DNA from: a virus
Length of the DNA: 27,009 bases
UHGV virus genome: UHGV-1355560
Reading direction: 5' to 3' (one strand)
The translations under genes and the position numbers were made by a program. How positions within the stretch are numbered: position 1 is the first letter of the stretch; each line of letters opens with the position of its first letter. Of this stretch, positions 1-27,009 are shown in pieces. The notes below the pieces were generated by a model. It searched no databases. It worked only from the letters and a program-made list of their open reading frames with translations, and was not told where the DNA came from.

Positions 1-292
1 ACGTGCGATTAAACTATTCATCTGTCTCTCCCTTGCTGTAATCTTTGTATGTTCTTTCTGTAAGTGCGGAATGCTCTGAAGAAGAGCCAACCAAAACTAC
101 TTACATCAATTGTAATATCGAAATCTGTTTCATCATCTAAATCAACAAAGACGACCTAAGCATGTAGCTTCCATCCCTTCTTCAGAGTCACTGTTGATTA
201 CGAAAGCGTATGTCTCCGTTCTGAACCGAGGCACCATCTCTGATAAAAAGTCTAATACTAAATTCATAATTCTTCTCCTCTGAATAAGAGTA

Positions 293-436
293 TAAAGGGC
301 ACATCATAAGATCAACCCGTAAAGGCCTCCTCATACCAACAACCCGTGTACGCTGAAGTAAAGGGCATGTCATAAAGGGGACTTCATGTTAAGGCACTAT
401 CACATAAAGGCCATGTCACGTTAAGGCCTATCCACC
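293..436 (+). repeat. Array of about 7 imperfect direct repeats of a ~15-bp unit, consensus roughly WWAAGGSC-MYRTCAY; five copies are tandem at 359-435 and two are dispersed at 293-310 and 320-336
   Basis: Read directly: TAAAGGGCATGTCAT / AAAGGGGACTTCATG / TTAAGGCACTATCAC / ATAAAGGCCATGTCAC / GTTAAGGCCTATCCAC in tandem. The region 1-476 has no long ORF on either strand. Confidence 0.7.
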
Positions 437-476
437 CATGTACTGAATCTCAACTTACCACATTCCTTACACTTCC

Positions 477-668
477 ATGCTGATAGATAGAGACCATGTA
501 TTCTTTCATCCCCGTAAGCTTTACGAAGAAGATGGTACAGAAACAATTACGTGGATTCACAAGAGTGAGTTAGTAGACGACGCACTGCGAGACTACGAAA
601 AATTTTTGGTCGACGGTTCTAATTCTTTTAGAGGAAGAGAAGGGTGCAGAACTTCCGTGGGAAGGTGA
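477..668 (+). CDS. Hypothetical small protein (63 aa), function unknown
   Basis: ORF with protein-like charged composition, followed by a hairpin plus T-tract at 726-746. No clear Shine-Dalgarno site upstream of the ATG, so it may not be a real gene. Confidence 0.3.
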   Translation: MLIDRDHVFFHPRKLYEEDGTETITWIHKSELVDDALRDYEKFLVDGSNSFRGREGCRTSVGR

Positions 669-725
669 GACGATTGCTCTAGGTAAGATGTTTAACCTGT
701 CCGTTGGTGATTGTAAGTAATGTTT

Positions 726-746
726 GCCTCCGTTGGGAGGCTTTTT
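726..746 (+). terminator. Rho-independent terminator-like hairpin (GCCTCC-GTTG-GGAGGC followed by TTTTT)
   Basis: Perfect 6-bp GC-rich stem, 4-nt loop and a run of 5 T, immediately upstream of the SD and start of the 778 ORF. Confidence 0.55.
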
Positions 747-777
747 GTGTTGTTGATAATGTAGAAGGAGTATAAAA

Positions 778-1251
778 ATGTTTGGAGAAAACGGAGAACT
801 CACGCCTGCACAGGTAGCTGAGGTTACAGGAAGATTACCCGGAGTAACGGAAGAACTCGAAAGCCGTGGTATGAACCCAAGCAATGGGAAGTTTCAAAAG
901 GGAAATAAATTCGGACGACCCAAAGGTAGTAGAGGTAAACTGACACAATTAATGTTGGACCGTGTTGCTGCAAGTCATTTGTCTCCTGATGAAGTGTTAA
1001 TTCAAATTTACGAAGATCCTAATATTCCACCTGATCTTAGATTCAAGGCTGCATCAAAAGTTGCAGATCTGGTATATCCTAAGGCGGCCTCTGTTGAAGT
1101 TAAGATTGAGGAAGAGAATGTAATCAACGAAGAATCATTGAATGCACAAATCAAGGACTTCTTGACTGGAGCACTTGGTATCGACGTTATGCCTCCAGAA
1201 GAAGACAACTCTGAGGACGCTGAAAAGGGGGAGGAAGCGGACGAGAGTTAA
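778..1251 (+). CDS. Putative terminase small subunit (157 aa)
   Basis: Small protein immediately upstream of the large terminase, with a basic N-terminal region (KGNKFGRPKGSRGK) and an acidic C-terminus. Strong SD (AGGAG) upstream. Assignment rests on position and composition only. Confidence 0.45.
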   Translation: MFGENGELTPAQVAEVTGRLPGVTEELESRGMNPSNGKFQKGNKFGRPKGSRGKLTQLMLDRVAASHLSPDEVLIQIYEDPNIPPDLRFKAASKVADLVYPKAASVEVKIEEENVINEESLNAQIKDFLTGALGIDVMPPEEDNSEDAEKGEEADES

Positions 1252-1412
1252 TTAAAGGAAACAGGGAGCTGTCGAAGATCATCTGATTAGCAATCTGAGG
1301 ATTGTTATAGTTTTATTGCCACGATGTTCTTTTGCAGTGTACCCTTGTAGTGGAGAGGGGAGGTTCTTTGACGAAGGGACTTTCCCTTTTCTATTTTTAA
1401 ACTGGAGGAAGT

Positions 1413-2954
1413 ATGTCATTAGATAAACAAATTTATGAAGCTCTAACTGGTAACAACCTTAGTGTAGAGGAAAAGAAAGCACTATTGAATATGTTGAAAG
1501 AGCGTGACCAATGGAGGAAGTATAATAAGATTTTGTCTTTCAAGGCGTATGACTTCCAAAAGAAATTTTATGCAGCAGGATTGAAGCATCGCTTTAGATT
1601 CTTGTGTGCAGCGAACCGTGTTGGTAAATCTTACAGCGAGGCATACGAGTTTGCTTGTCATGTCACAGGTCGCTACCCAACTTGGTGGACAGGATATAAA
1701 TTTAAAAGACCTATCTTAGCATGGGCAGTTGGTATTACAGGGGATTCCACAAGGAAAGTGTTGCAAAAGGAATTGTTTGGTACACCTATCGGAAAGGATA
1801 CAAACTTATTGGGGACAGGTGTCATTCCTCGTGATGCTATCGTCATTGACACGATAGAACGAGATGGTAACAAACTTCAAATCGTACAAATCAAACATCA
1901 AAATGAAAGAGGAGAGTTTGACGGTTTAAGTACATTAGAATTCCGTTCAACCCAACAGGGTGAACACACATTGATGGGTGCAACAGTTGACTACATTTGG
2001 TTAGACGAAGAAGATCCATACGAGTCTATGGCTATATTCGCACAGTGCGTCACACGTACACTCACAACTAAAGGTCTAGTTACAATTACAGCTACACCAG
2101 AGAACGGTTTAACTGAACTGGTAGATAAATTTATGAAAGGTGAAGGGGATGAGAACACAGGTTCTCTATATTTCCAGAATGCTTCTTGGTGGGATGCTCA
2201 TGCAGACCTAGGTGGACATATCACTGACCAAGATATAAAAGATATGACTGAAGGTATTCCAGCGTGGCAATTAGAGATGCGTTCAAAAGGTATGCCATTG
2301 TTAGGAAGTGGTTTGATATATGATGTATCGGATGACACAATTAAATGTGAACCATTCGAAATTCCTGATACGTGGAAACGTGTCTGTGCAATTGATATTG
2401 GTATTGATCACCCAACTGCTGCTGTTTGGACAGCTTACGATGCAAACACGGATACTATCTATGTTTACGACTCATATAAAGAAGGTGGCTTTACTCCAGT
2501 GTATCATGCTCCAGCTATTAATGGTCGTGGTCAGTGGATTCCTGTCATCCTACCGCACGATGCGGATAATATTGAGAAAGGTAGTGGTTCATCTGTTGCT
2601 CAATTCTATAAGAATGCAGGAGTTAACGTACAGAGTGAGACCTTCTACAACAAAATTGGAATGGATGGTAAAAAGAACTTCTTTGTAGAACCAGGAATCA
2701 CAGATATCCGAGAAAGAATGATGAGTGGACGCTTTAAAATCTTTAACACAGCCGCTAACGCTAAGCTATTCGAAGAGAAAGCTAGATATCACCGTAAGGT
2801 TGGTAAGATTATTAAAGAACATGATGACTTAATGGATGCAATGCGCTATTCAGCGTGCTCTGTTACACATCGTGGTCGCTCTAAGCATGACGTTAGCTAT
2901 GGAAGTGCTTCTTTGTATGAGGCAAACGTAAGCAGATGGAATCAGAGTTACTAA
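1413..2954 (+). CDS. terL: Terminase large subunit (513 aa)
   Basis: Walker A-like motif AANRVGKSYS, Walker B-like VDYIWLDEED and a C-terminal nuclease-like region with conserved acidic residues (CAIDIGIDH...). GGAGG SD 5 nt upstream. Typical size and position ahead of portal. Confidence 0.85.
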   Translation: MSLDKQIYEALTGNNLSVEEKKALLNMLKERDQWRKYNKILSFKAYDFQKKFYAAGLKHRFRFLCAANRVGKSYSEAYEFACHVTGRYPTWWTGYKFKRPILAWAVGITGDSTRKVLQKELFGTPIGKDTNLLGTGVIPRDAIVIDTIERDGNKLQIVQIKHQNERGEFDGLSTLEFRSTQQGEHTLMGATVDYIWLDEEDPYESMAIFAQCVTRTLTTKGLVTITATPENGLTELVDKFMKGEGDENTGSLYFQNASWWDAHADLGGHITDQDIKDMTEGIPAWQLEMRSKGMPLLGSGLIYDVSDDTIKCEPFEIPDTWKRVCAIDIGIDHPTAAVWTAYDANTDTIYVYDSYKEGGFTPVYHAPAINGRGQWIPVILPHDADNIEKGSGSSVAQFYKNAGVNVQSETFYNKIGMDGKKNFFVEPGITDIRERMMSGRFKIFNTAANAKLFEEKARYHRKVGKIIKEHDDLMDAMRYSACSVTHRGRSKHDVSYGSASLYEANVSRWNQSY

Positions 2955-3137
2955 AATCCTAAGAGTTTCTAGAGAGGTTTAGGCCAGAGATTAGCCTTTC
3001 TAGCGCAGGGGGCAAGCATTCTGGCGGCTTGTTGGGGAGAGTAGGCTACGACCTCCCTTTTAGTCTTGTGGTTACTAAATTCTAGTGGTGGTAGGACAGC
3101 CCCACGTTAAAAACAGAAACGTCCAAACAGAAAAATT

Positions 3138-3165
3138 GGGAGGTTTGTCCTCCCTTCTTTTATTT
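3138..3165 (+). terminator. Hairpin GGGAGG-TTTGT-CCTCCC followed by a T-rich tract, between terL and portal
   Basis: 6-bp GC stem and T-rich tail read directly. Sits just upstream of the portal SD, so it may attenuate rather than fully terminate. Confidence 0.4.
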
Positions 3166-3191
3166 AAGCTATCAACCGAGGGAGAGAATCG

Positions 3192-5435
3192 ATGGCTAAG
3201 CAAAAATATAGTGAAGAGGTGTTGGACGAGTTACGTGTTGACCTTCAACGTCGTTTTAATTATGCTCAAGGCTACGTGGACATGGCTGTTAAGGGCTATG
3301 CTCGTGAAGCTTGGGAATATTTCTATGGTAACTTACCTGCACCAGTAACTGCTGGCAGCTCTAGTTGGGTAGATCGTACTGTTTGGGAATCTGTTAACGG
3401 TACATTGCAAGATATTATTAACGTATTCTGTTCTGGTGATGAAGCAGTTACTTTCGTAGCTGACAACCAACAGGATTCTGATGCTGCTGATGTAGCAACT
3501 AAATTGGTTAACCAAATTCTTCTGCGTGACAATCCGGGATACAATATTATCTCTTCTGCTGCACAAGAATGTCTGGTTACTCGTAACTCTTTTATCAAAT
3601 ATTATTGGGATGAGCAAACTTCTACTCAAACTGAAGAAGCTGAAGGTGTACCACCGGAAGCATTGGCTGCATATGTTCAGGGATTAGAAGCTGGTGGACT
3701 CAAGAATCTGGAAATCTTCACTGAAGAAAATGAAGATGGTACAGTAGATGTTAAAGTTACTTACGAACAAACTGTTAAACGTGTGAAAGTTGAATATGTT
3801 CCTTCAGAGCAAATCTTTGTTGACGAACATGCTACCTCTTTTGCAGATGCACAATACTTCTGTCATCGTGTACGTCGTTCTAAAGAAGATCTGGTTGCTA
3901 TGGGCTTCCCTAAAGATGAGATTGAAGCATTTAACGACTGGACAGACACGATGGATACTACTCAATCTACAGTTGCTTGGTCTCGTACTGACTGGCGTCA
4001 GGATATTGATGCTGATATTGGTACAGATACTGAAGATATCGCTTCTATGGTTTGGGTTTATGAGCACTACATTCGTACTGGTGTTCTAGATAAGAATAAA
4101 GAGTCTAAACTCTATCAGGTTATTCAAGCTGGTGAGCATATCCTTCACACTGAAGAAGTAACTCACATTCCGTTTGTAACCTTCTGCCCGTATCCGATTC
4201 CGGGTTCCTTCTATGGTCAATCGGTCTATGACATTACGAAAGATATTCAAGATTTACGTACCGCGTTAGTTCGTGGTTATATTGATAACGTCAACAATGC
4301 TAACTATGGTCGATACAAAGCTCTTGTTGGTGCATACGATCGTCGCTCTCTGCTTGATAACCGTCCCGGTGGAGTGGTTGAAATGGAACGTCAGGACGCT
4401 ATTGACCTGTTCCCATACCATAACCTACCTCAAGGTATTGACGGCCTCCTAGGTATGTCTGAGGAGCTTAAAGAGACACGTACAGGTGTAACCAAACTAG
4501 GCATGGGTATCAACCCTGATGTGTTTAAGAATGATAACGCTTATGCAACCGTAGGCTTGATGATGAATGCTGCACAGAACCGTCTCCGTATGGTATGTCG
4601 TAACATTGCTCACAATGGTATGGTTGAATTGATGCGTGGTATTTACAACCTTATCAGAGAAAATGGTGAAGTTCCTATTGAGGTACAAACCCCTCGTGGT
4701 ATGATTCAGGTTAACCCGAAACAATTACCAGCTCGTCATAATCTTCAAGTTGTTGTAGCTATCTCCCCTAACGAGAAAGCAGAACGTGCACAGAAACTGA
4801 TTAGCTTGAAACAGCTGATTGCAGCAGATGCACAGTTAGCGCCTCTCTTTGGTTTGGAGCAAGACCGTTACATGACTGCACAGATCTTTGAGTTGATGGG
4901 TATTAAGGACACACATAAATACCTTCTGCCTCTGGAACAGTATCAGCCTCCAGAACCTTCTCCGATGGAAATCCTCCAGCTCGAGATGACTAAAGCTCAG
5001 GTTGAGAACGTACAGGCTTCTTCTCAGAAGATGATTGCTGATGCATTCGACCAACGTGAACGTACTACATTCGAACAGCAGAAAGCTGCGGATGAATTAA
5101 GTCTGCGTCAGGAAGAGTTGCAGTTCAAGCAAGAAAATGCAGCAGATGCAATGACTCTGGAAAACCGTAAAGAAGATAACAATGCTACTCTGGAACAAGC
5201 CAAGCACAAGTTAGCTCTTATGCAACAGCAGGTCCGTCAGTATGAATCTGTACTGAAAGAATTGCAGATGGTTATGTCTCATCAGGTAGACCAAGAGAAG
5301 ATTGTTCAGCAAGCTCGTGTTCAGGACAAAACTTTGGAACTCCAAAAGAAAGAAGCTAATGTAACTAAGAAAGAGCAACAAGCTTCTCTCAAAGATTCAC
5401 GGATTCCAGGCAAACGTCTTGGAAGTAAAAAGTAA
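3192..5435 (+). CDS. Portal protein (747 aa) with a long C-terminal Q/E/K-rich coiled-coil-like tail
   Basis: Large protein directly after terL and before scaffold and capsid. The last ~150 residues are a low-complexity heptad-like Q/E/K-rich segment ending in a basic tail (GKRLGSKK). Confidence 0.8.
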   Translation: MAKQKYSEEVLDELRVDLQRRFNYAQGYVDMAVKGYAREAWEYFYGNLPAPVTAGSSSWVDRTVWESVNGTLQDIINVFCSGDEAVTFVADNQQDSDAADVATKLVNQILLRDNPGYNIISSAAQECLVTRNSFIKYYWDEQTSTQTEEAEGVPPEALAAYVQGLEAGGLKNLEIFTEENEDGTVDVKVTYEQTVKRVKVEYVPSEQIFVDEHATSFADAQYFCHRVRRSKEDLVAMGFPKDEIEAFNDWTDTMDTTQSTVAWSRTDWRQDIDADIGTDTEDIASMVWVYEHYIRTGVLDKNKESKLYQVIQAGEHILHTEEVTHIPFVTFCPYPIPGSFYGQSVYDITKDIQDLRTALVRGYIDNVNNANYGRYKALVGAYDRRSLLDNRPGGVVEMERQDAIDLFPYHNLPQGIDGLLGMSEELKETRTGVTKLGMGINPDVFKNDNAYATVGLMMNAAQNRLRMVCRNIAHNGMVELMRGIYNLIRENGEVPIEVQTPRGMIQVNPKQLPARHNLQVVVAISPNEKAERAQKLISLKQLIAADAQLAPLFGLEQDRYMTAQIFELMGIKDTHKYLLPLEQYQPPEPSPMEILQLEMTKAQVENVQASSQKMIADAFDQRERTTFEQQKAADELSLRQEELQFKQENAADAMTLENRKEDNNATLEQAKHKLALMQQQVRQYESVLKELQMVMSHQVDQEKIVQQARVQDKTLELQKKEANVTKKEQQASLKDSRIPGKRLGSKK

Positions 5436-5444
5436 GGACGTCGA

Positions 5445-5681
5445 ATGAACATTAGGCATCAATTCAATAAAGAGCACGCCGCCGCTTTGGCGGCTCTCAA
5501 TCTTAACGGCAGTCTTGACGCAGCATTAGAGGCATTGAAAGAAAGACTCATGACAGAGATAGTTCAAACAGAACCTCATGAGAATAAGAAACGCGAAGAT
5601 TGTTATCAAAAGTATAAAATGGTTGGTAGCTTAAAAGAGGTCATAAAAGCTGCTATCAATAGTGCAGGAGATGTTTCATAA
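5445..5681 (+). CDS. Hypothetical small protein (78 aa) between portal and scaffold
   Basis: SD-like AAGGA upstream. Its stop overlaps the scaffold start (TAATG). Helical, charged composition. Confidence 0.5.
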   Translation: MNIRHQFNKEHAAALAALNLNGSLDAALEALKERLMTEIVQTEPHENKKREDCYQKYKMVGSLKEVIKAAINSAGDVS

Positions 5682-6766
5682 TGCCACAAGATAATTATAT
5701 TGACCCGAACGATTTTAAATCTTTCCTCCAACTGGATGACCTGAAAGGTTCTTTCAAAGAAGAACTCGGTCGATTAGAATCTGAACAAGAACCAGAAGTG
5801 GACATTGACGATGAGTTCCCGGAAAAAGACGGTGACGATTTCGACTTTGATACCGACCTTCTCGGTGAAAGCGATGTGCTTAAGTTCGAAGATGAAGATG
5901 GTTGGGAAGATCATGATGAGGAAGGCGAAGTCGAAGAAGATGAGGGCGACTCTGATGAAGGTGCTGAAGACACTGAAGTAGAAGAGGAAGACTCAAGCGA
6001 TGCAGGATATGAAGATGATTCTGCTGACGGCGATGGTGAAGTCTTTGATGTAGACTACGAAACCGTTATCACCCTTCCTGATGGACGTGAGATGACTATT
6101 GAAGAACTCTCCAATGGCTATCTTACTGGTGCTGATATGACAGAACGAGAAACTACTCTTCAGCGTCATATGGAAGCATTTGAGGAACGTGTAGTAGGTT
6201 TGAAGGATGTATTAGAACTGGCGTCTTTAGAAGCAGACCGAGTAATTGAAGATTATAACGGTTTTGATTGGGACAAGCTTGCAGTAGAAGATCCTCAAGC
6301 ATATGTTGAAAACAAACGTTTCCTAGAGAAGTACACAGCTCGCCGTCAACAGCTTGAACAGGCTCAGGTCCGTATTAAGCAGGAAGCAGCAGCTAAAGAG
6401 CAGGAAGCTTTCCAAGCCAAGAGCATTGAATGTGTTAATATTCTGAAACGTGAGATTCCAAATTGGGATGAAAACTTATATCAAAACTTAATGCAATACG
6501 CAATTGACTTAGGTGCTACTGAAGAAGAAGTATTGAAGGAAAACCGTCCGTCTATTTTCCTAGCTCTCCATAAAGCATACCAATTTGATAAAGGTAAGCA
6601 ACAGGTGATGGCTAAGATTAAACGTCCCGGTGCTCCACGCAAGGTTGTGAAGTCTGATGCTGCAAAGTCTCGTACTTCCAATAAGCCAGACAACGCTAAG
6701 GTTGCCAAGGCATTCGCAGAGGGTCGCGTTAGTCACGAAGACGCATTCAAATTCCTCGTAGATTAA
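5681..6766 (+). CDS. Scaffolding protein (361 aa) with a hyper-acidic N-terminal region
   Basis: Position between portal and major capsid. Residues ~30-120 are extremely D/E-rich, and the C-terminal half is helical and charged, as expected for a scaffold. Confidence 0.7.
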   Translation: MPQDNYIDPNDFKSFLQLDDLKGSFKEELGRLESEQEPEVDIDDEFPEKDGDDFDFDTDLLGESDVLKFEDEDGWEDHDEEGEVEEDEGDSDEGAEDTEVEEEDSSDAGYEDDSADGDGEVFDVDYETVITLPDGREMTIEELSNGYLTGADMTERETTLQRHMEAFEERVVGLKDVLELASLEADRVIEDYNGFDWDKLAVEDPQAYVENKRFLEKYTARRQQLEQAQVRIKQEAAAKEQEAFQAKSIECVNILKREIPNWDENLYQNLMQYAIDLGATEEEVLKENRPSIFLALHKAYQFDKGKQQVMAKIKRPGAPRKVVKSDAAKSRTSNKPDNAKVAKAFAEGRVSHEDAFKFLVD

Positions 6767-6807
6767 TCGACAAATTAATTATTTAATAGTATAGGAGCTA
6801 ACATAAC

Positions 6808-7869
6808 ATGGCTAATCCAACTTTATTTGTATCATATGACCAGAATGGTAAAAAACTTTCTTTTGCTAACTGGATTTCTGTTCTGTCCCCTCAGGATACC
6901 CCGTTCGTATCCATGACCGGTAAAGAGTCTATCAACCAGACTATCTTTAGCTGGCAGACCGATGCACTGGCAAGCGTTGATGGTAATAACGCACACGTCG
7001 AAGGCTCTCGTGCTGAAGACGGCGAAATGAAACCGACTGTTATCAAGTCTAACGTTACTCAGATTCTGCGTAAGGTTGTTCGTGTTTCTGACACCGCTAA
7101 CACCACCGCTAACTACGGTCGTGGTCGTGAACTGATGTACCAGCTGGAGAAGAAAGGTAAAGAGATCAAGCGTGACCTCGAGAAAATCCTTCTGTCCGGT
7201 CAGGCTCGTACTGATGTTCTGGCTGACCAATATCTGACTAACTCTGCAACGGATCCTGCTGTTGTTGGTCTGAATGACACCCATGCAGCTCGTAAGACTG
7301 GTGCATTCCAGTTCCTGTGTGCTCACGGTGGTTTGTCTGGTGGTGTTGTTGACAAGACTAAGAATGGTCCTGCTGACCCGGATACTGGTGCAGTAACTGT
7401 TAAAGTTGCACAGAATGCTTCTAACCCGACCACTAACATTGGTTTCGACGAAGCTGATATCTTTGATATGACTCTGCAACTGTATACCGCTGGTTCTGAA
7501 GCAGATATCATCATGATTAACCCGGCTCATGCTAAGATCTTCGCTGGTCTGCAAGAAAATACTCAGGGTTCACGTAAGCGTATCTTTGAGAACACCAAGC
7601 AGTTCATCTACGAAGTTAATAGCATCACTGACCCGCTGGGCCAGAGCTACAAAATCATCGTTAACCGTTGGATGCCTACCGATGCAGTTTACTTCTTCCG
7701 TAGCGCTGACTGGACTCAGATGGTTCTGCGTGCTCCGAAACGTACTGAACTGGCTAAAGACGGTTCTTACGAGAAATGGATGATTGAAATGGAAGTTGGT
7801 CTGCGTCACCGCAACCCGTATGCTTCCGGCGTTCTGTTCACTGCTGCGGGAAAGGTAGCGGCGGCGTAA
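6808..7869 (+). CDS. Major capsid protein (353 aa), zero-frame product
   Basis: Position after scaffold, appropriate size, and a C-terminal region (GLRHRNPYASGVLFTAAGK) that resembles the C-terminus of T7-type capsid proteins as recalled from memory. Not confirmed by search. Confidence 0.8.
   Translation: MANPTLFVSYDQNGKKLSFANWISVLSPQDTPFVSMTGKESINQTIFSWQTDALASVDGNNAHVEGSRAEDGEMKPTVIKSNVTQILRKVVRVSDTANTTANYGRGRELMYQLEKKGKEIKRDLEKILLSGQARTDVLADQYLTNSATDPAVVGLNDTHAARKTGAFQFLCAHGGLSGGVVDKTKNGPADPDTGAVTVKVAQNASNPTTNIGFDEADIFDMTLQLYTAGSEADIIMINPAHAKIFAGLQENTQGSRKRIFENTKQFIYEVNSITDPLGQSYKIIVNRWMPTDAVYFFRSADWTQMVLRAPKRTELAKDGSYEKWMIEMEVGLRHRNPYASGVLFTAAGKVAAA
7848..7854 (+). other. Candidate -1 programmed ribosomal frameshift slippery heptamer G_GGA_AAG, 13 nt before the capsid stop codon
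   Basis: Canonical X_XXY_YYZ heptamer in the capsid zero frame. The -1 frame is open from here through 8924 and encodes Ig-like domains that begin before any ATG. Confidence 0.65.
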
Positions 7870-8924
7870 CAGTAGATTCCGTAACTGTTAGTCCTTCGTC
7901 GGTTGCAAGCCTTCCGACGGGGGCTACTCAGCAGTTTACAGCTACAGCAGAAATGAGTGACGGCTCCACAAGCACAACCGGATTTAGTTGGTCCGTTGAG
8001 GGCGGTGGGGCTGTTTCTGTTTCTGGGCTATATACTGCACCGAGTGCGTCGCAAGAAACCCCAGCAACTATTACGGCAACGAAGTCATCCAAGAAAGGAA
8101 CGGCTACTGTTAATTCTATCTACGAACCGGCGACCATTGTGTCAAAAGGTCCTATTACCGGCAAGATTGGTGGCAGCACTACAGCTTTTACCACAATGTT
8201 TACGGCAACCAACTCAGCATTCTCTGATTATGAATTTGAAATCACTCCTCCGTCAGCAGGTTCCTTTAATCTGTCGGGTGTGTTTGGTTTAGATGATAAT
8301 GCATCTGGAACAGTGACTGTAAAAGCAACACATAAAACTCAGACCTCCGTTACGGCTACTACCTCCTTTACTGGAGTTGCTGCTAAAGCTGGAATTGTGA
8401 CTAAAGGTCCGATAACTACTGCTCTTGTTGGTGGTGATTCAGTAGCTTTCAACACAATGTTTACTACCGTCAACTCTTCAGCGTCTGATTATACAGTTAC
8501 AGTAAATCCTGAAGCTAATGGGTCTTTCGTTAGTGGTTCTGTAGTCCTTTCTGCTAATGCATCAGGAAGCACTGTTGTTAAAGCTGTTCACAAAACACAA
8601 CCTAATGCAACAGAAACTTGTACATTATCCAATGTTACTCCTAAAGCAGTTTTGACAGCTAAGACAGTAACTGGTAAAATTGGTGGGGACACTGTTACGT
8701 TTGCTGATTTATTCACAGCAACTAACTCCTCTGCTTCCAATTACACTTTCGTAGCCAACCCTTCTAATATGGCAACCTCTATTGATGCAAATACAGGTCT
8801 TGTCACTTTAGCAGCTAATGCTACTGGTAATGTTACTATCAAAGCTACCCATAAAACTCAAACCTCAGTTACTGCAACAGGGACAATCAGTGGTGTAGTT
8901 CCTAAAAGCTACTATCACAGGTAA
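7854..8924 (+). CDS. Capsid C-terminal extension in the -1 frame: one Big_2-like domain followed by tandem ~85-aa Ig-like repeats (likely capsid decoration fused by frameshift)
   Basis: The -1 frame has no stop from the slippery site to 8924. The translation VDSVTVSPSSVASLPTGATQQFTA... starts upstream of the first ATG at 7953, so it cannot be an independent gene. Repeats each end in KATHKTQTSVTAT. Confidence 0.65.
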   Translation, partial: GSGGVTVDSVTVSPSSVASLPTGATQQFTATAEMSDGSTSTTGFSWSVEGGGAVSVSGLYTAPSASQETPATITATKSSKKGTATVNSIYEPATIVSKGPITGKIGGSTTAFTTMFTATNSAFSDYEFEITPPSAGSFNLSGVFGLDDNASGTVTVKATHKTQTSVTATTSFTGVAAKAGIVTKGPITTALVGGDSVAFNTMFTTVNSSASDYTVTVNPEANGSFVSGSVVLSANASGSTVVKAVHKTQPNATETCTLSNVTPKAVLTAKTVTGKIGGDTVTFADLFTATNSSASNYTFVANPSNMATSIDANTGLVTLAANATGNVTIKATHKTQTSVTATGTISGVVPKSYYHR

Positions 8925-9492
8925 ATCTCTTACCGGTAAGGTTGGTGGTGATGTGATTCCTTTTACTGACATGTTCACTAGTAACAAGCCAGCATCAGAA
9001 TTCACTTACGTACTAACTCCTACTGGTGAAGTTGGTTCAATCAACACTACTACTGGTGCACTGACTTTAGCACTGGCTCCTACAGATGAAGCTATGAGTG
9101 TGAAAGCTACTCATAAAACTCAAACTTCTGTAACCGCTACTGCTACAATTACAGCAACACCGAAGCTGACAGGTCTTGTTCTTTCTTCTGTGACTAACAC
9201 CACAGTTACTGGAAGCCCTGCGGTTCCGGCTGAATCTGATACAATCACTATCACTGATTCGGGTGTTGCAGGTGTGGCTCGTGTAGATGGAGTTCCTCAA
9301 GGAGCTGTAACTGGAGCTTTGGCCTATGATGTAGAAGGTACAGACTCTTCATTGATGACAGTGGATTTAACCAGTAATGTGTTAACTATCACTCTGTCAG
9401 CACCGATTACCAGTGAAGATACAAAAATCACCATCCGAACTAATCCGGGTTCTGATGTTTTCCGTACCTATATTGTTAAATCTGGTGCATAA
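8899..9492 (+). CDS. Continuation of the Ig-like repeat region in a different frame (fourth repeat plus C-terminal domain), separated from the preceding part by a 1-nt frame break at an AAAA run (8904-8907)
   Basis: The frame-1 translation KATITGKSLTGKVGGDVIPFTDMF... completes the repeat unit that the upstream frame cuts off at VVPKSYYHR*. The ORF-track start (GTG at 8953) lies in the middle of a repeat unit with no SD. Confidence 0.55.
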   Translation, partial: FLKATITGKSLTGKVGGDVIPFTDMFTSNKPASEFTYVLTPTGEVGSINTTTGALTLALAPTDEAMSVKATHKTQTSVTATATITATPKLTGLVLSSVTNTTVTGSPAVPAESDTITITDSGVAGVARVDGVPQGAVTGALAYDVEGTDSSLMTVDLTSNVLTITLSAPITSEDTKITIRTNPGSDVFRTYIVKSGA

Positions 9493-9498
9493 GAATAA

Positions 9499-9527
9499 AG
9501 CCGCCTTCGGGTGGCTTTTCTTGTTTT
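9499..9527 (+). terminator. Rho-independent terminator (AGCCGCC-TTCG-GGTGGCT followed by a T-rich tract)
   Basis: 7-bp stem with one G-U pair, UUCG tetraloop and TTTCTTGTTTT tail directly after the capsid-extension stop. Confidence 0.7.
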
Positions 9528-9591: not shown

Positions 9592-10345
9592 ATGGCGATG
9601 CCAGATGTGGCCTATCCGATTAACACGTATGGCTGGCTTAAGAAAGCTGTTGCCTTGTGGGCCGATCGGGACGATGATGAATTTGTTAATCAAATTCCAA
9701 ACTTTATTAATTTTGCAGAGAAAGAGATTTATCGTAACTTACGTATTCCTCCTCTGGAAAAAGAAGTGTATTTAGATATCAAAGATGGAGTGGCTTATAT
9801 TCCTCCTGATTACTTAGAAGCTCAGTGGATGATGAGAGCCAAAGATGGTACAATCTTCCAAGTAACATCTCCTGAGGAGATTAGCTATCGTAGACAGCAT
9901 GGAACAATTAACCCATCCCACTGGAACAACCAGCCTGTTAACTTTGTCTCGTTTCGGGAGTCGTTTCATTTTCTATCCTAGTATTGAAGCAGATACTCCT
10001 GTTTATCCTGATGATGGAAGCCCTTTGATTCCAGCAGAAAACTCAGTGATTCTTAGCTATTATGCGGACCCACCGGAATTCCATGAAGATACAGATACCA
10101 GTGCTATCCTTACTATTGCACCAGAGCTTCTTCTGTATTTCACTCTACGTCACGCTTGCTTATTTGTTCAAGATGATAATGGAGTTCAGAAATGGTCTGC
10201 ATTAGGAAAAGCTATCCTTGATGAAATAGTAGAGCAGCATAAGAAACAAGAGTACTCAGGTTCACCTATCGCAATTCCGAATAACATGACTCGACTTCAG
10301 AGCAGCTTGCCTGATATTTATGGTATTCGTACTTCTCGTGTATAA
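9592..10345 (+). CDS. Hypothetical virion structural protein (~250 aa) split into two overlapping frames (9592-9981 and 9899-10345), a possible head-tail adaptor
   Basis: Strong SD (AGGAGG) before 9592. The second ORF has no SD, and its frame is open from 9866, overlapping the end of the first. Protein-like sequence switches from frame 1 to frame 2 near 9946. Confidence 0.5.
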
Positions 10346-10354
10346 GGAGATAAT

Positions 10355-13300
10355 ATGATCGTTTATAATAGCCAAGCACCTGATGCAGTGAATGATGTTG
10401 GGCAGTTTGGTGCTAAGGAAGGCTCTATCGGAGCTTACAAGCAAGCAGCAGAATATGCAGCTGACTCCAAATATTGGGCACTGCTAGCGGAGTCTAAGTT
10501 TGGTACAATTGATGACTTGATCACTGAAGTAGAACGTCTGTATCAACAAGGTGTTTTAATGAAGCAAGATATCGAAGATCTTAAACAGGACTTTAAAGAT
10601 CAAGATGCTCGTTTGATGACACTTATTGCTCAGACTAACGCAGCAGTGTCGGATGCTAATAATGCCGTTGCTTTAATCAATCAGAAACTTATTGAGGTTC
10701 AGAAACAGCTTGATGTTCTGTTGGGAATGTCTGTTGACGTAACTACACTTCCTCCGGGAACTCCGGCTACTGGCTCTTTTAATCCGAACACTGGTGTAAT
10801 CTCTTTAGGTATTCCAGAAGGTGATCCCGGAAAGGATGGTTCTGTTAAAGATTTGGATACAGCACCTACTGGTGTTCCAGAGCTAGGTGATTTAGGTTTC
10901 TATGTTGACAAAGATGACAATACTGTCCACAAGACTACTCTAGAGAATATTGCTAACTTAATTCCATCTGTTCGTTCTGTGTCTGTTAACGGTGGAACAC
11001 CTGCTGATGGAGAAGTTAATCTGGTCCTAGACAAAACTACTGTAGGTCTTAATAACGTAGTTAACGTAGCCTCTTATAGTATCTCTCAAGTTGACGGTAA
11101 AGTGGATGGGTATGTTAAAACCTACAGAACCAAAGCTGCTGCGGATGCTGATGTAGTTAACCGAAAGGTTGGCGAAAACATCCTAGTTTGGGAGGATTAT
11201 AAATACGTCTTCTACACTGTAGCTGCCGATAAAACACTAACTCTTTCTAAAACAGAAAATAGGATTGTTACGGTAAACTCTCGAGTTCCGGATTCTACTG
11301 GTAATATTGATATTACGATACCTACCGGTAACCCGTCTTTGTATTTGGGTGAGATGTTAATGTTCCCTTATGACCCAGCCAAACAGGTGTCATATCCGGG
11401 TGTTCTTCCAGCTGATGGTCGTCTGGTGTCTAAAGATAACGCTGCTGATTTAGGCCCATCTCTTGTCAGTGGTCAACTTCCTGTTGTTTCTGAAACTGCG
11501 TGGCAAGCTGGAGCTAAACAGTATTTCTCTTGGGGCAAGTTAGCTGATGGGGTTACTGATGCGGATTCAACAAACTTTATCAATATTCGACTTCCCGATT
11601 GGACAGGTGGTGAGGCAATTAGATCTCCAAGTAAAACAAGTGACACTCAGTATGATGGAAGACCTCTTTCTCAGGTTCCTTATGTTGTTGCTGTTAACGG
11701 TAAGATCCCTAATGAAGCAACAGGTAATGTTACAGTCACAGCATCAGATGTAGGTGCCCTTCCTACTACTGGTGGTAAGATGACAGGCCATCTAAATCTC
11801 AGCTCTGGGATTGTGTTAACAGGTACCGCGAGTTCTGGAACATCCATTAATATCGCAACTGTTGCAACTGATGGTTCCGTTCTTCTCGGTAGTGATACAG
11901 TTAAAGCTAAAGTCCTATCTTCTGATGTCCCTGTTTATGCAAGCGCTTCGGGAGAGAAGAAGTTTTACACTGAGGCTAACAAACCAACTCCTGCTGAAAT
12001 AGGGGCTGCTGCTATCACCTCTGCTGGGGTTAACGGGGATATCACTAAGCTTGAAGGTTTGGTTGGCCCTACTCGACTGGGTGGAGATGCTGTAGGTGAT
12101 CTAGATGCTGTTACCTTACGTCAGTTAAGAAACCAAGGGGGTGGCGGTGGTGGGGCTAGCTTGAACGGTGTCTCTAATTTCAATATTGGTGATTTCCGTT
12201 TAGTAGACAGTCGTGCTCTTATTCACTCTAATGACGTAACTTCTGACGGTCAATTATTATCTCGTACGGCATACCCAGATCTGTGGGCTTATGCTCAAGC
12301 GTTGTCTCCTATCACAGATGCTGCTTGGCTGGCTGACCCCCAACAAAGAGGTAAATACTCTTTAGGTGATGGTTCTACTACATTCCGTGTCCCTGACCGA
12401 AATGGTGTCCAAAGCGGCTCTATCACAGGGTTGTTTGGTAGGGGTGACTCTGGTAATTCTTCTAACAGTGGTTCAGTTTCTGATGCTTCTCTGCCAAACA
12501 TCACAGCTAGCTTCTCTTCAGACTTAAACGGAAAAGCTTGGTTTCCTTTCACTACAGCTGACGGGTCTATGCTTGTCTCAACATCCGGTAGTGGAACTTT
12601 TATGCCAACTGCTGGATATGAAACTGGGACCCAAGGAAATATACTTAGGTTCGATGCATCTAGACAATCCTCAGTTTATGGTCGATATAGTAACACCCAG
12701 AACGTAATACCTAAAAGTTTTACTGGCGTTTGGGTAATCAGGGCTACTGGTGGATTCACTGCTGCTAATACAGAGTGGTCTGTTATTAACTCCGATGCAA
12801 CCAAACCTTCTACTGGGTTTACAGTGTCTGGTGGTTTAGTCCGCTCTGAGTATAAAATAGGGACCGACCTAACTTACTCAGCAACCTTGTCTGCTTATGG
12901 GCAAATTGATGGAGCCTCCGGAACATCTGGAGCTAAAATCTTAAACGGGTCTCAGGAGTGGAAATTCAACAATGCTGGAACATTAGTTCTTCCTAATGCG
13001 GTATCTCAGCTTGGTACAGAAAGACCTGATGGAGCTATCAATGTTGATGCATACCTAAGACCTAAAGATTTGGTAGCCAACTCACTGAACTCTGTCGGTG
13101 TTGCGGCTTACGAGCGAAACGGTATGAGGATGATTAACTTCAATCAAACCACTCCTGGATATGTTTCTTACTTCTCTGGGGATTGGTATGATGGCAGTTA
13201 CACTCTTGGTGGCGTTCGTGGTACTGGTACAGACCTGATTCATGCTCAGATTGCGGTAAACAACGGTCAAGGTGTAGCAGCTGATTTTAAGTTCATGCCG

Positions 13301-13669
13301 GACGGAACTGCTCAAGCAGGGAACTGGTCAAGCACTTCAGACGAAAGACTTAAAACTAACATCAAGCGTATTGAGAATCCTATTGAAAAACTTAAGGCTA
13401 TCAAAGGTGTTACTTGGGAACGTCTTGATAAACTTCCTAAACCTAATGGTATTGGCTTCCTTGCGCAAGATGTGGAGAAGGTTTTCCCTGACGCTGTTAA
13501 GGCTCTCCAGTATTCAGACACTGAATTGAAAGATGGAACTATTGTGAAAGATGTTAAGTCTGTAGACACCTATGGGGTAGCTGCTGCACTGCATCACGAA
13601 GTCCTATTAGTTTTGTTAGATAGAATAGAAGCTCTTGAGAAAGAAGTAAATGAATTAAGGGCACGGTAA
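10355..13669 (+). CDS. Tail fibre or tailspike protein (1104 aa) with a central tail-collar-like module and a C-terminal intramolecular chaperone (peptidase S74-like) domain
   Basis: Gly-rich linkers and a C-terminal ...NWSSTSDERLKTNIKRIENPIEKLKAIKGVTWERLDK...GFLAQDVEKVFPDAV segment, matching the self-cleaving chaperone found on endosialidase-type fibres. Strong SD. Confidence 0.85.
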   Translation: MIVYNSQAPDAVNDVGQFGAKEGSIGAYKQAAEYAADSKYWALLAESKFGTIDDLITEVERLYQQGVLMKQDIEDLKQDFKDQDARLMTLIAQTNAAVSDANNAVALINQKLIEVQKQLDVLLGMSVDVTTLPPGTPATGSFNPNTGVISLGIPEGDPGKDGSVKDLDTAPTGVPELGDLGFYVDKDDNTVHKTTLENIANLIPSVRSVSVNGGTPADGEVNLVLDKTTVGLNNVVNVASYSISQVDGKVDGYVKTYRTKAAADADVVNRKVGENILVWEDYKYVFYTVAADKTLTLSKTENRIVTVNSRVPDSTGNIDITIPTGNPSLYLGEMLMFPYDPAKQVSYPGVLPADGRLVSKDNAADLGPSLVSGQLPVVSETAWQAGAKQYFSWGKLADGVTDADSTNFINIRLPDWTGGEAIRSPSKTSDTQYDGRPLSQVPYVVAVNGKIPNEATGNVTVTASDVGALPTTGGKMTGHLNLSSGIVLTGTASSGTSINIATVATDGSVLLGSDTVKAKVLSSDVPVYASASGEKKFYTEANKPTPAEIGAAAITSAGVNGDITKLEGLVGPTRLGGDAVGDLDAVTLRQLRNQGGGGGGASLNGVSNFNIGDFRLVDSRALIHSNDVTSDGQLLSRTAYPDLWAYAQALSPITDAAWLADPQQRGKYSLGDGSTTFRVPDRNGVQSGSITGLFGRGDSGNSSNSGSVSDASLPNITASFSSDLNGKAWFPFTTADGSMLVSTSGSGTFMPTAGYETGTQGNILRFDASRQSSVYGRYSNTQNVIPKSFTGVWVIRATGGFTAANTEWSVINSDATKPSTGFTVSGGLVRSEYKIGTDLTYSATLSAYGQIDGASGTSGAKILNGSQEWKFNNAGTLVLPNAVSQLGTERPDGAINVDAYLRPKDLVANSLNSVGVAAYERNGMRMINFNQTTPGYVSYFSGDWYDGSYTLGGVRGTGTDLIHAQIAVNNGQGVAADFKFMPDGTAQAGNWSSTSDERLKTNIKRIENPIEKLKAIKGVTWERLDKLPKPNGIGFLAQDVEKVFPDAVKALQYSDTELKDGTIVKDVKSVDTYGVAAALHHEVLLVLLDRIEALEKEVNELRAR

Positions 13670-13679
13670 TATAAATAAT

Positions 13680-13698
13680 GCTCCCTTCGGGGAGCTTT
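13680..13698 (+). terminator. Hairpin GCTCCC-TTCG-GGGAGC with a short T tract (weak terminator or RNA-stabilising hairpin)
   Basis: Perfect 6-bp stem with UUCG loop but only 3 T after it, immediately followed by the SD of the next fibre gene. Confidence 0.4.
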
Positions 13699-13710
13699 AA
13701 GGAGATTTAA

Positions 13711-15807
13711 ATGTCTAGAGATTTAATGCCCAAATCTGGCATACTTCAACCATATGTTGTTGTTTCCAGAGATGCAGCTGTTGTTGGCGTTTCCACTGTA
13801 GATGGTGTTGCTGGAGCTGTAAATTTAACTGATAAATACTTGCAGAAAACAGAAGCGGCTGATGTATATCAAACTAAAACAGAAGGTGCATCTAAAGATT
13901 ATGTATTAGATTCAATTAAACCTATCATGGAAGGTGCTTTGTTCAAAGCAGACCCTTTTGTAGATAATAACATCCCTTTCCGTTCTGCTGGGGCTAATGG
14001 TGTAGAGTCTGTGGATATGATGAAAGTCACCACTGATAACTCAATTAAGATTGGTAGTTATGCTTCCTCAGTTCAAGGTGTAGAAATTCACTCTGCTGGT
14101 CGTCTTCAGGTTGTTGACCAGAATGACTCTGGGGTAGAAACTAAGTACCCTGTTTATTCTAAACGATACCGCCCTGAGATTGAAGATTTACCTTTCGCTG
14201 CAATCGGAACTTATGTTAAAGATTCAAAAGGTCGTACTGTTGGTGTTACCCGTACAGGTATTAACTCTGATATCAAACAGCTTACACAGAAGGTTACTTT
14301 CACTCAGCCAGTAACTGTTGCCGATGCAGTTGGTGACTATGATGCTGTCACACTAAGACAACTCCGTAATAGTAGTGGTGGTTCTGGTGGTCCTACAATG
14401 AGCGGTATTTCTAACTTTGGTATTGGTGATTTCAGACTAGTAGACAGCCGTGCTTTTATCCAATCAAATGATGTTACCTCAGATGGTCAGCTGTTAAATC
14501 GTGCTGATTACCCAGAGCTTTGGGCTTACGCACAACTATTGACCCCAATTAGTGATGCAGATTGGCTGGCTGACCCCCAACAAAGAGGTAAATACTCTTT
14601 AGGTGATGGTTCTACTACTTTCCGCGTTCCTGATAGAAATGGCGTTCAAACCGGTTCTATCTCTGGTCTGTATGCTCGCGGTGACGGTGGTAACAGCTCC
14701 AACGACGGTACTGTTCAGCAGAACGCCGCGCCTGATATTACAGGCTCCGTTGGTGCGAACATATGGAGCGTATATGGAGATCCTACGGGGGCGATGTTTG
14801 CGGCTGATCCAGCACTTAATATTCCGTTAGGCGCAGGAACCACACCAGCGCTTTCCGTCGGCTTTCGAGCGGGCCTATCAAACGCCGCTTATGGTCGCGA
14901 CAACACGACCGAAGTCCGCACCAACAGCTTCATAGGTGTCTGGGTTATTCGTGCTAATGGTGGCTTTACTGCTGCTAATACTTCTTGGTCTGTTATTAAT
15001 GGCGACAGCGTTGCTCCGGGTACTGGAACAAAGATAGTAGGTGGTGAGATTCGTTCTGACTATAATATTGGAGACTCTATGCACATAAGATCCTCTATGC
15101 GTGCTGATGGTAACTACGGTCAACGTGGAGGTGGTGTATGGAGAATTGAGGACTATCAAGGTAAAAGTGCAGAGATATCTTTCAACCTTGGTGGTGAGTT
15201 AGTGGTCCCAACATACACCAGAGGCGTGGGGTCGGGTTTCATTGCATCTTCTAAATTAGGGTCTGATGGTCAGTGGCCTACAACATCCCCGGCGTTTATT
15301 TGTGAGCTAACAGGCAGAGTGGGTAATCCCGGAACACCGGGTGCTGTTTTCTCCATGTCTATGGCGGAGAACGTGGGTGTTGATAGCTTTGGCATACTTA
15401 GATTCTCAGGAGCAGGGGTGAATGTGGACTGGCTGTTTAACCAGTTTGGTAGTGCCATAGCTCCTGCTAACTGGGTGAGTAATTCGGATATCCGAATTAA
15501 AAAGGATATTGCTAAGATAGAAGAACCTCTTGAGAAGATGAAGAAACTACATGGGTACACTTGGCGACGCTTAGACGGGGGCCAGTTTGGTATTGGGTTC
15601 ATTGCTCAAGAAGTTCAGGATATCTATCCAGAGTTGGTCTATACAGGCCCAGACAGAACCCTCCCTGATGGAACAGTTGTCAAAGGTGTCCTATCTCCAG
15701 ATTCTACTGGTATTGCGATTGGTCTTCACCACGAAGCTATTCTGGCTTTGATGGAACAAATCGACACCCTTAAAGCAGAGATTGCTGAACTCAAATCTAA
15801 CAAATGA
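13711..15807 (+). CDS. Second tail fibre protein (698 aa) with the same tail-collar-like module and C-terminal S74-like chaperone domain
   Basis: Shares DAVTLRQLRN...GDFRLVDSRA...WLADPQQRGKYSLGDGSTTFRVPDRNGVQ with fibre 1, and has a C-terminal ...NSDIRIKKDIAKIEEPLEKMKKLHGYTWRRLDG...GFIAQEVQDIYPELV chaperone domain. Confidence 0.85.
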   Translation: MSRDLMPKSGILQPYVVVSRDAAVVGVSTVDGVAGAVNLTDKYLQKTEAADVYQTKTEGASKDYVLDSIKPIMEGALFKADPFVDNNIPFRSAGANGVESVDMMKVTTDNSIKIGSYASSVQGVEIHSAGRLQVVDQNDSGVETKYPVYSKRYRPEIEDLPFAAIGTYVKDSKGRTVGVTRTGINSDIKQLTQKVTFTQPVTVADAVGDYDAVTLRQLRNSSGGSGGPTMSGISNFGIGDFRLVDSRAFIQSNDVTSDGQLLNRADYPELWAYAQLLTPISDADWLADPQQRGKYSLGDGSTTFRVPDRNGVQTGSISGLYARGDGGNSSNDGTVQQNAAPDITGSVGANIWSVYGDPTGAMFAADPALNIPLGAGTTPALSVGFRAGLSNAAYGRDNTTEVRTNSFIGVWVIRANGGFTAANTSWSVINGDSVAPGTGTKIVGGEIRSDYNIGDSMHIRSSMRADGNYGQRGGGVWRIEDYQGKSAEISFNLGGELVVPTYTRGVGSGFIASSKLGSDGQWPTTSPAFICELTGRVGNPGTPGAVFSMSMAENVGVDSFGILRFSGAGVNVDWLFNQFGSAIAPANWVSNSDIRIKKDIAKIEEPLEKMKKLHGYTWRRLDGGQFGIGFIAQEVQDIYPELVYTGPDRTLPDGTVVKGVLSPDSTGIAIGLHHEAILALMEQIDTLKAEIAELKSNK

Positions 15808-25375: not shown

Positions 25376-25388
25376 TTAGGAGACAAAT

Positions 25389-27009
25389 ATGCAACAGACA
25401 ACTTACGCTCAGGTCAGAAGTCGTGACCCGAGAAATACTTTCTATGGTGTTAATCCGGGAGCGGCTTCGGCCTCTCCTTATATGGCTAGACCAACTCAGA
25501 CAGCAGATATTTCTATGTATCAACGTCCTGCTATACCTGCTGGGCTTTCCTCTCTTGTAGGTCAAACTTCAGTAGATTATCAGAATATGTTGAATCCTGT
25601 TCAGAGTAATGGTCTTCCTTCTGATATCCCAAATGATGTACAACCTCAAGCACAACAGGCTGTAACTCTTCCTGAGTTTGAGAATCAAGAAACCATGCAA
25701 GCTGCTGGACTTTCTCCTTCTTCTATTCCTCCAGAATCAGAACCTCTTCCGGTAACACCTCCTACTAAACCGTTAGAAGCTGGTCCTATGGAGTTTACTC
25801 CTTCTCAGGTGGAACAGGCACAAGGTGTGATTAATACTCTTGCTCAAGGACAAGACGCTGGTGATGGAATGACTGCTGCTACTCGTGCTAAAGATCAGGA
25901 ACGTGTTAACAACGATATCTTGCAAGTTGCTAAAGCTAAAAATCCTTCAGAAGCTTGGAATAAACTACAGAAAGAACCTTTCTATCAGAACTCCAGTTTC
26001 TATACAGGTTTAATGGGTGTAGGTCTTTCTATCATGTCAGGTAAGTCTCCTATTGAAGCTTTCCAGATTGGTCAGGGAATGGCTAATCAAGATGAGACTA
26101 AGAAGCAACTGGAAGCTAACCGTGATGCTCTGATTGAACAAGGCTTCTCCCAAGACTCGATCGCAGCTGCTATTGCTAACGGAGACCCGTCTCTACTGAA
26201 GATGAGAGCTGTAGACCCTGCTCAGAAAGAAGCGCTGTATGCTTGCTCGTCGAAGAACGACAAAATGCTGAATGGGATAGACGTCAACAGATTCAAGAGC
26301 AAACTATGCGTGAGCGTGCTGATGAAACTCGTCGTGCCGCTGAAGAAAGAGCTAACATGAACTTTGAACGCCAGAAAGAGTTGATTGGTTATCGTGATAA
26401 GGTTAAGGCTGAACGTGCTGAACAAGCTGCTCAGAGTTTTAACTTTAACCCGAAAGAAGTTCGTCTTGCTCAGAATACAGCTGAAGGTACGGTTGCTAAG
26501 CAGTGGGCAGAGAAAGGTGGCCTGTTTAACCAGTCTAATAAAGACTTGGATTTGGCTGATAAGGCTGTTAAGGATAAAGACTATCAGACAGCTCGTTCTG
26601 CTTACATGCAGGCTATCATGAACTCCGCAAGGGCTGAAATCGGTGCTACTCGTTCTCTTACCGAAGAAGACTTGGGGCACTTTGCAGAAGACCCATCAAT
26701 CTTCGTTCGTGTTGGCAACAAGTTTGCACTGAAGTCTGGATGGCGTCCTACTGATTCTGCTCTTGCTTATGCTCGTAAGCAAGCTAACGTTGGTCATACC
26801 TCTGCAATGAAAGGTGTTGCTGATGCTAAGAGAGCTACGATTGAAGCTTACATCGGTTCTGGTATGGACAAGAAGAGGGCTACTGCATTGGTTAACCGTG
26901 CAATCCCTTCTGGTGGTTTCTATGACCCTCTAGGTGTTTTCTCTGAACAAGCAGAAGAAGCGGTTGGTGGTGCAGCAACCAATCCTAAGCTTAATGGTGC
27001 TCTATCAGC
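25389..27009 (+). CDS. Large internal-virion or ejection-like protein, 5' partial (runs off the window end), with an apparent -1 frame break near 26243
   Basis: Strong SD. Frame 3 reads well to about ...DPAQKEALYA (26243) and then becomes implausible and stops at 26360. The -1 frame is open from 26180 to the window end, giving coiled-coil-like EERQNAEWDRRQQIQEQ... Confidence 0.6.

Follow-up and report, generated by a model that had tools for sequence, protein, structure and literature searches.

The capsid gene and its Ig-like extension

The DNA analysed here (UHGV-1355560, 27,009 nt, hereafter the window) represents the structural module (packaging, head and tail) of a phiEco32-like Escherichia coli podophage of the Kuravirus group, in the Gordonclarkvirinae. 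More than 100 Escherichia and Shigella phages match the window at 90-95%, the window's own record being absent from these matches. Its major capsid protein is 98-99.7% identical to the capsid proteins of Paul and phiEco32, and a protein identical to it is marked as PF17236 (SU10_MCP) on related contigs. The positions of the features discussed below are collected in Table 1.

Table 1. Features of the capsid gene and its extension in the window (all on the + strand)
Feature	Position	Strand	Remarks
Major capsid protein gene	6808..7869	+	353 aa, frame 1, SU10/phiEco32 type; ORF
Slippery heptamer G_GGA_AAG of the known -1 programmed frameshift that leads to the Ig-like extension (conserved)	7848..7854	+	sole GGGAAAG in the window
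Extension as given, -1 frame	7854..8924	+	GSGG linker, Big_2, repeats 1-3, 2 residues of repeat 4, tail SYYHR, stop at 8922-8924
Frame-1 continuation: remainder of repeat 4 and C-terminal beta-sandwich of ~110 aa	8899..9492	+	stop at 9490-9492; from translation
A4 run with a single extra A, cause of the frame break	8904..8907	+	lone indel relative to Paul in 2,721 nt
Intrinsic terminator 3' of the capsid/extension gene	9497..9518	+	terminator annotated at the corresponding place in Paul

The GGGAAAG heptamer is located just before the capsid stop codon, and the -1 frame that it gives access to is open to 8924, or to 9492 if one A is removed from the run described below. A -1 slip site is annotated at the corresponding place in phage Paul, and likewise in YF01, and it has been described for YF01, phiEco32 and Privateer (PMC7881722, PMC9965538). 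The longer capsid isoform has been reported in virions of phiEco32 and Privateer (PMC7881722). The window contains both elements of the Kuravirus-type extension (phiEco32 gp11/12 type), that is, the heptamer and an open -1 frame coding for Ig-like domains. The addition of Ig-like display domains to the Kuravirus capsid by -1 frameshifting is already known biology, and from its reading frames the window is predicted to retain an intact two-isoform capsid system operated by the slip at 7848. A comparable arrangement is found in gene 10A/10B of T7 and T3, whose minor capsid isoform arises from a -1 slip close to where the capsid gene ends (PMC7881722, PMC9965538), although the T7 extension is short and the likeness concerns the slip at 7848 and leaves the break at 8904 aside.

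If the -1 frame is taken as frame 0, the extension is composed of a GSGG linker, a Big_2 domain (Pfam match with E = 5e-6), four repeats of ~86 aa each and a C-terminal domain of ~110 aa. The four repeats share 35-52% pairwise identity, and none of them had a Pfam match of its own in the profile search. The first-pass annotation had described them as tandem repeats with a common ending; they are indeed tandem repeats, but the ending KATHKTQTSVTAT is present in only three of the four, repeat 2 ending in KAVHKTQPNATET. Repeat 4 and the C-terminal domain were modelled by AlphaFold as two all-beta (beta-sandwich) domains with a pLDDT of 91.8, and the modelled pair resembles tandem Ig/cadherin domains, as well as one chain in the capsid reconstruction of phage N4.

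The frame break in the extension

In translation, frame 0 reads ...TGTISGVVPKSYYHR (...GVVPKSYYHR) and stops at 8922-8924, and frame 1, which opens after the TAG at 8896-8898, reads FLKATITGKSLTGKVGGDVIPFTDMF... until the TAA at 9490-9492. Only 23 nt (8899-8921) are common to the two frames, and within them the repeat can be restored by a one-base shift at a single point, the A4 run at 8904-8907. The fusion product of the window is, as given, 705 aa long, and 894 aa long when one A is removed. The break at CCT-AAAA-GC that had been proposed from a first inspection is therefore present in the given sequence, with the +1 frame carrying on repeat 4 to 9492. It had also been placed inside the fourth repeat, which is the correct repeat, although the break falls at residue 2, at the junction between repeats 3 and 4, and not deep inside the unit; as the Big_2 domain precedes the four repeats, this is the fifth Ig-like module of six. 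The GTG at 8953 does lie inside a repeat unit, as had been noted, but it is just the earliest start codon available to the frame-1 ORF, and neither an annotation nor any sign of its use was seen. Purifying selection is seen on both sides of the break (dN/dS 0.16-0.22 in the downstream frame and 0.20-0.29 in the upstream repeats). On the basis of its translation, 8899-9492 is assigned to the capsid extension and not to a separate gene.

Related sequences at the site

The closest deposited phage is Paul, whose global alignment with the window over 6800-9520 (2,721 nt, 91% identity) contains a single gap column, which corresponds to the extra A at 8904-8907. CPT_Paul_010 (QEG08106.1, 894 aa) is like the window in gene order, in its GGGAAAG site and in the succession of Big_2, four repeats and C-terminal domain, and the 894 aa of the repaired window product equal the length of the frameshifted major capsid protein of Paul. 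In contrast to the window, Paul has AAA in place of AAAA, so that its extension ORF is continuous, and its C-terminal 820 nt are more diverged (81%). Three As, with all frames continuous (CCT-AAA-GC), are found in 7/7 homologous sequences (Paul, Bas86, EP335, CYGL01000233.1 and contigs from SRR33913812, ERZ15610127 and ERZ27289034).

One of these sequences is CYGL01000233.1 (NCBI assembly GCA_001292545.1), the one contig found by a pattern scan of metagenome contigs that permitted either A3 or A4 at the site. It is 99.95-99.97% identical to the window over 664-27009 (26 kb), and is thus essentially the window's phage, with which it shares a T insertion at 9947 and an A5 run at 774-778. It differs from the window in having A3 at the site (CCT AAA GCT), in its own private insertions (at 950, 1556-1571, 26141 and 26148) and in a damaged ATG at 779. 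This contig has an uninterrupted extension of 547 codons from the slip site, ending in ...IVKSGA (called ORF, 512 aa), and deleting one A from the window gives the same 547-codon extension. Another contig of the CYGL01 set, CYGL01000085.1, is titled 'Assembly HumMal, Ma_F259_Contig_623' in a 2024 paper.

The 90% protein cluster has eight members; all of them are 509-512 aa long and unbroken across ...VVxKATITGK.... A scan of IMG/VR for the site with A3 or A4 retrieved none, a search of IMG/VR for relatives of the downstream protein gave 36 pattern matches of which 0 were confirmed, and a scan of the GTDB genomes for the site also found none. Exact look-ups of the window ORFs 8953-9492 and 7953-8924 located these broken versions in no other assembly of the collection. 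As A3 and a continuous frame are found in every relative compared, the A4 is private to the window. In the comparison with related phages, which had been suggested as a check on the break, one near-identical independent assembly and six farther relatives have one A fewer and a single ORF. This amounts in effect to the outcome that the first-pass annotation had named as the mark of an assembly artefact.

Insertions elsewhere in the record

The window and contig CYGL01000233.1 differ by nine indel events (0 of them a multiple of 3) and two substitutions, both of which lie within one indel cluster. Against its true relatives the window shows 557-1024 substitutions and 5-24 indel events, and a genuine relative at 99.18% identity (L019) shows 23 substitutions in 2.8 kb and not one indel. 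At every site where window and contig differ, except 778/779, one of them agrees with the whole set of eight relatives, and a private insertion is found in its counterpart: the odd one is the window at 8904, 26243 and 26251, and the CYGL contig at 950, 1556-1571, 26141 and 26148, while at 778/779 both are unlike the relatives. The private insertions mostly lengthen a run of one base. Because each of the two sequences is the odd one at some sites, both are probably noisy consensus calls of one phage. An indel-only spectrum of this kind fits consensus error and is not produced by evolution, which suggests that the A4 is an error and not a mutation.

Several other genes of the record are interrupted in the same way. 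The portal-tail adaptor (gatekeeper) gene (9592-10345), a single 250-aa ORF in all relatives, is split by the T insertion at 9947 (TTTGTCTCG vs TTTGCTCG) into ORFs of 129 and 148 aa that match the respective halves of PF24175 (SU10_adaptor); exact look-ups of the 129-aa fragment and of the window's scaffold protein had matches in the CYGL contig only. A virion gene of ~550 aa (25386-27009, homologue of phi32_25) carries insertions at 26243 and 26251, 8 nt apart and with a net effect of +2; both positions are undamaged in the CYGL contig, where the phi32_25 homologue is instead broken ~100 nt upstream by the contig's own insertions, 26141 and 26148. The homologue of phi32_4 is broken by a 2-nt deletion near 59 and by a change of AA to AAA at 149, where all relatives differ, and that of phi32_5 by a change of A to AA at 622 (sites 59, 149 and 622 fall outside the CYGL contig, which starts at window position 664). 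The insertions at 9947, 26243/26251 and 622 are absent from all eight relatives. Thus, the extra A is private to the window and is accompanied by further single-base insertions, private to the window or to its lineage, in conserved genes. From the sequence comparison we infer that the private insertions are technical rather than mutational, and a viable lytic phage carrying all these gene breaks is unlikely.

Not every oddity is provably technical, since two of them, the insertion at 9947 and the A5 run at 774-778, recur in the CYGL contig. The first may be a real, and then probably lethal, mutation of the lineage, or else an error made in both assemblies; the second may be a real change of the lineage or an error arising from read sets that overlap. 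The A5 immediately precedes the start codon ATG of the phi32_6 homologue, a gene named putative small terminase in YF01, at a place where all relatives have A4; in the CYGL contig the A5 is accompanied by an ATG that lacks its T.

At the left end of the record, positions 1-538 are reverse-complemented with respect to Paul, phiEco32, YF01 and PGN6866, and the inverted end is joined, at about 524-538, straight to the equivalent of Paul 1185, about 360 nt being missing. Either the assembly end is chimeric or inverted, as it appears, or the rearrangement is real. The HumMal/CYGL01 set may be the Malawian-twin gut virome data set, and the Malawian-twin viromes of Reyes et al., from 2015 in PNAS, were reportedly obtained by MDA and 454 pyrosequencing. 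Such a source would be in keeping with homopolymer errors as well as with a chimeric, inverted end, although it was given no weight in the verdict.

Origin of the extra A and alternative explanations

The extra A at 8904-8907 is very probably a sequencing or assembly artefact, to which we give a probability of about 0.85 on the evidence of the sequence comparisons. The variant is private to the record, the differences from the nearest assembly are dominated by indels, and other frame-breaking indels are found in conserved genes; on the other side, four As make a short run. According to this explanation, a homopolymer over-call or a consensus error in a noisy assembly would have introduced the extra A into the record, and the phage itself would have CCT AAA GCT at the site. 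The phage would then make the usual two capsid products, one of 353 aa and one of 894 aa (with Big_2, four Ig-like repeats and the C-terminal beta-sandwich) through the -1 slip at GGGAAAG, and the ORF at 8953-9492 would be the tail of the extension put out of frame by the error, not a gene. The first-pass annotation had left three options for the break, a homopolymer error, a real truncating mutation or a second recoding site; the first is now strongly favoured, the second appears much less likely and the third finds no support.

Insertions by replication slippage do occur at short A runs, as is well established, and the A4 could be a real and recent insertion that leaves an extended form of 705 aa with Big_2 and three repeats but devoid of repeat 4 and the C-terminal domain. 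The length of the extension varies widely in relatives, from about 170 to 547 residues, and SU10, which belongs to the same phage group, loses its -1 frame extension to a premature stop 39 nt past the slip site (PMC9965538), which suggests that truncation is tolerated. On the strength of this early stop the extension seems dispensable in the group, and a truncated form could be viable. The two cases are not equivalent: in SU10 the whole extension is removed, as backed by virion gels and cryo-EM (PMC9965538), whereas the window would lose the last two domains only, through a break that is absent from a near-identical assembly. This assembly, 99.95% identical, has A3, and all its differences from the window are of the indel type with zero clean substitutions; similar private insertions in the window break a conserved virion gene. 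Furthermore, the 198 codons downstream contain no more stops or indels and retain a dN/dS of 0.16-0.22, so that a real break, if any, would have to be extremely recent. A real truncation is, therefore, considered unlikely; if true, it would represent natural variation in the amount of Ig-like decoration of the capsid.

A recoding function for the run is far less probable still. In this case the A4 would be a programmed or tolerated +1 site at which tRNA-Lys moves from AAA (8904-8906) to AAA (8905-8907), followed by GCU, restoring ...VVPKATITGK... in some ribosomes and giving three isoforms of 353, 705 and 894 aa. A +1 slip at AAA_A would allow perfect re-pairing and would give exactly the protein of the relatives, and the 23-nt frame overlap offers no other candidate site. 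Bacterial +1 sites of the prfB type are efficient only when a slow A-site codon is combined with a Shine-Dalgarno stimulator. The A4 shares with the +1 frameshift of prfB (E. coli RF2) the possibility of perfect re-pairing in the P site but, unlike prfB, it is without a stop or hungry codon in the A site, an allele-specific and properly spaced Shine-Dalgarno sequence, and conservation. The run is not conserved, as A3 with a continuous frame is what the seven homologous sequences have; AGC, the 0-frame codon that follows, is not a rare one (55 of 6,886 codons, TCG having 13), and the stop comes six codons past the slippery codon instead of in the A site. The motif AAA_A is not special either, since it occurs in frame 30 times in 15 intact genes of the window, and the Shine-Dalgarno-like GGTG located 5' of the run is ordinary conserved coding sequence that is present in the A3 relatives too. 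A frameshift-stimulating RNA structure was rejected, the local fold being no better than that of shuffled controls (z = -0.43). Transcriptional slippage, which needs runs of roughly 7-9, was also rejected, four As being far below the required length. The idea that a second recoding site tunes the Ig-like display thus finds no support, as the A4 is not conserved and the usual +1 stimulators are absent. A weaker version, in which the A4 would be real in part of the population and rescued by low-level +1 slippage, so that the 353, 705 and 894 aa products would arise through two frameshifts of opposite sign, is judged equally improbable.

The least credible of the explanations is that 8953-9492 is a gene of its own, which would be translated from GTG 8953 into a free Ig-like protein of 179 aa. 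The ORF is open and a weak TAAGG is found 11 nt 5' of the GTG, but this TAAGG is a by-product of a synonymous AAA-to-AAG change with respect to Paul, and a start within the repeat unit would deprive the domain of its first two beta strands. In addition, exact look-up found no 8953-9492 product on record, and all relatives encode this stretch within one ORF.

The main value of the case is one of caution. If the record is annotated as it is, the capsid extension comes out truncated, along with a spurious gene of 179 aa, which might even hint at a capsid gene with double recoding. A capsid gene with two frameshifts of opposite direction would be notable if the break were real and conserved, and the evidence points to neither. 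The same class of error splits the adaptor gene and another virion gene, and gene-level conclusions drawn from this record therefore need to be checked against relatives.

Tail-fibre genes of the window and an endonuclease gene of relatives

The two tail-fibre genes of the window (10355-15807), which code for proteins of 1104 aa and about 698 aa, are mosaic. Only the N-terminal ~468 aa of the first fibre resemble those of Paul and phiEco32 (75-82%), the second fibre is ~53% identical, and both have Peptidase_S74 C-terminal domains, as seen on the CYGL contig; the host-range module is exchanged with respect to the closest capsid relatives. In some relatives a gene for an HNH endonuclease is located between the capsid extension and the adaptor gene (at 3845-4378 in L021, contig k119_19566 of ERZ27289034, and at 3032-3460 in L002, Bas86), and the window is without it.
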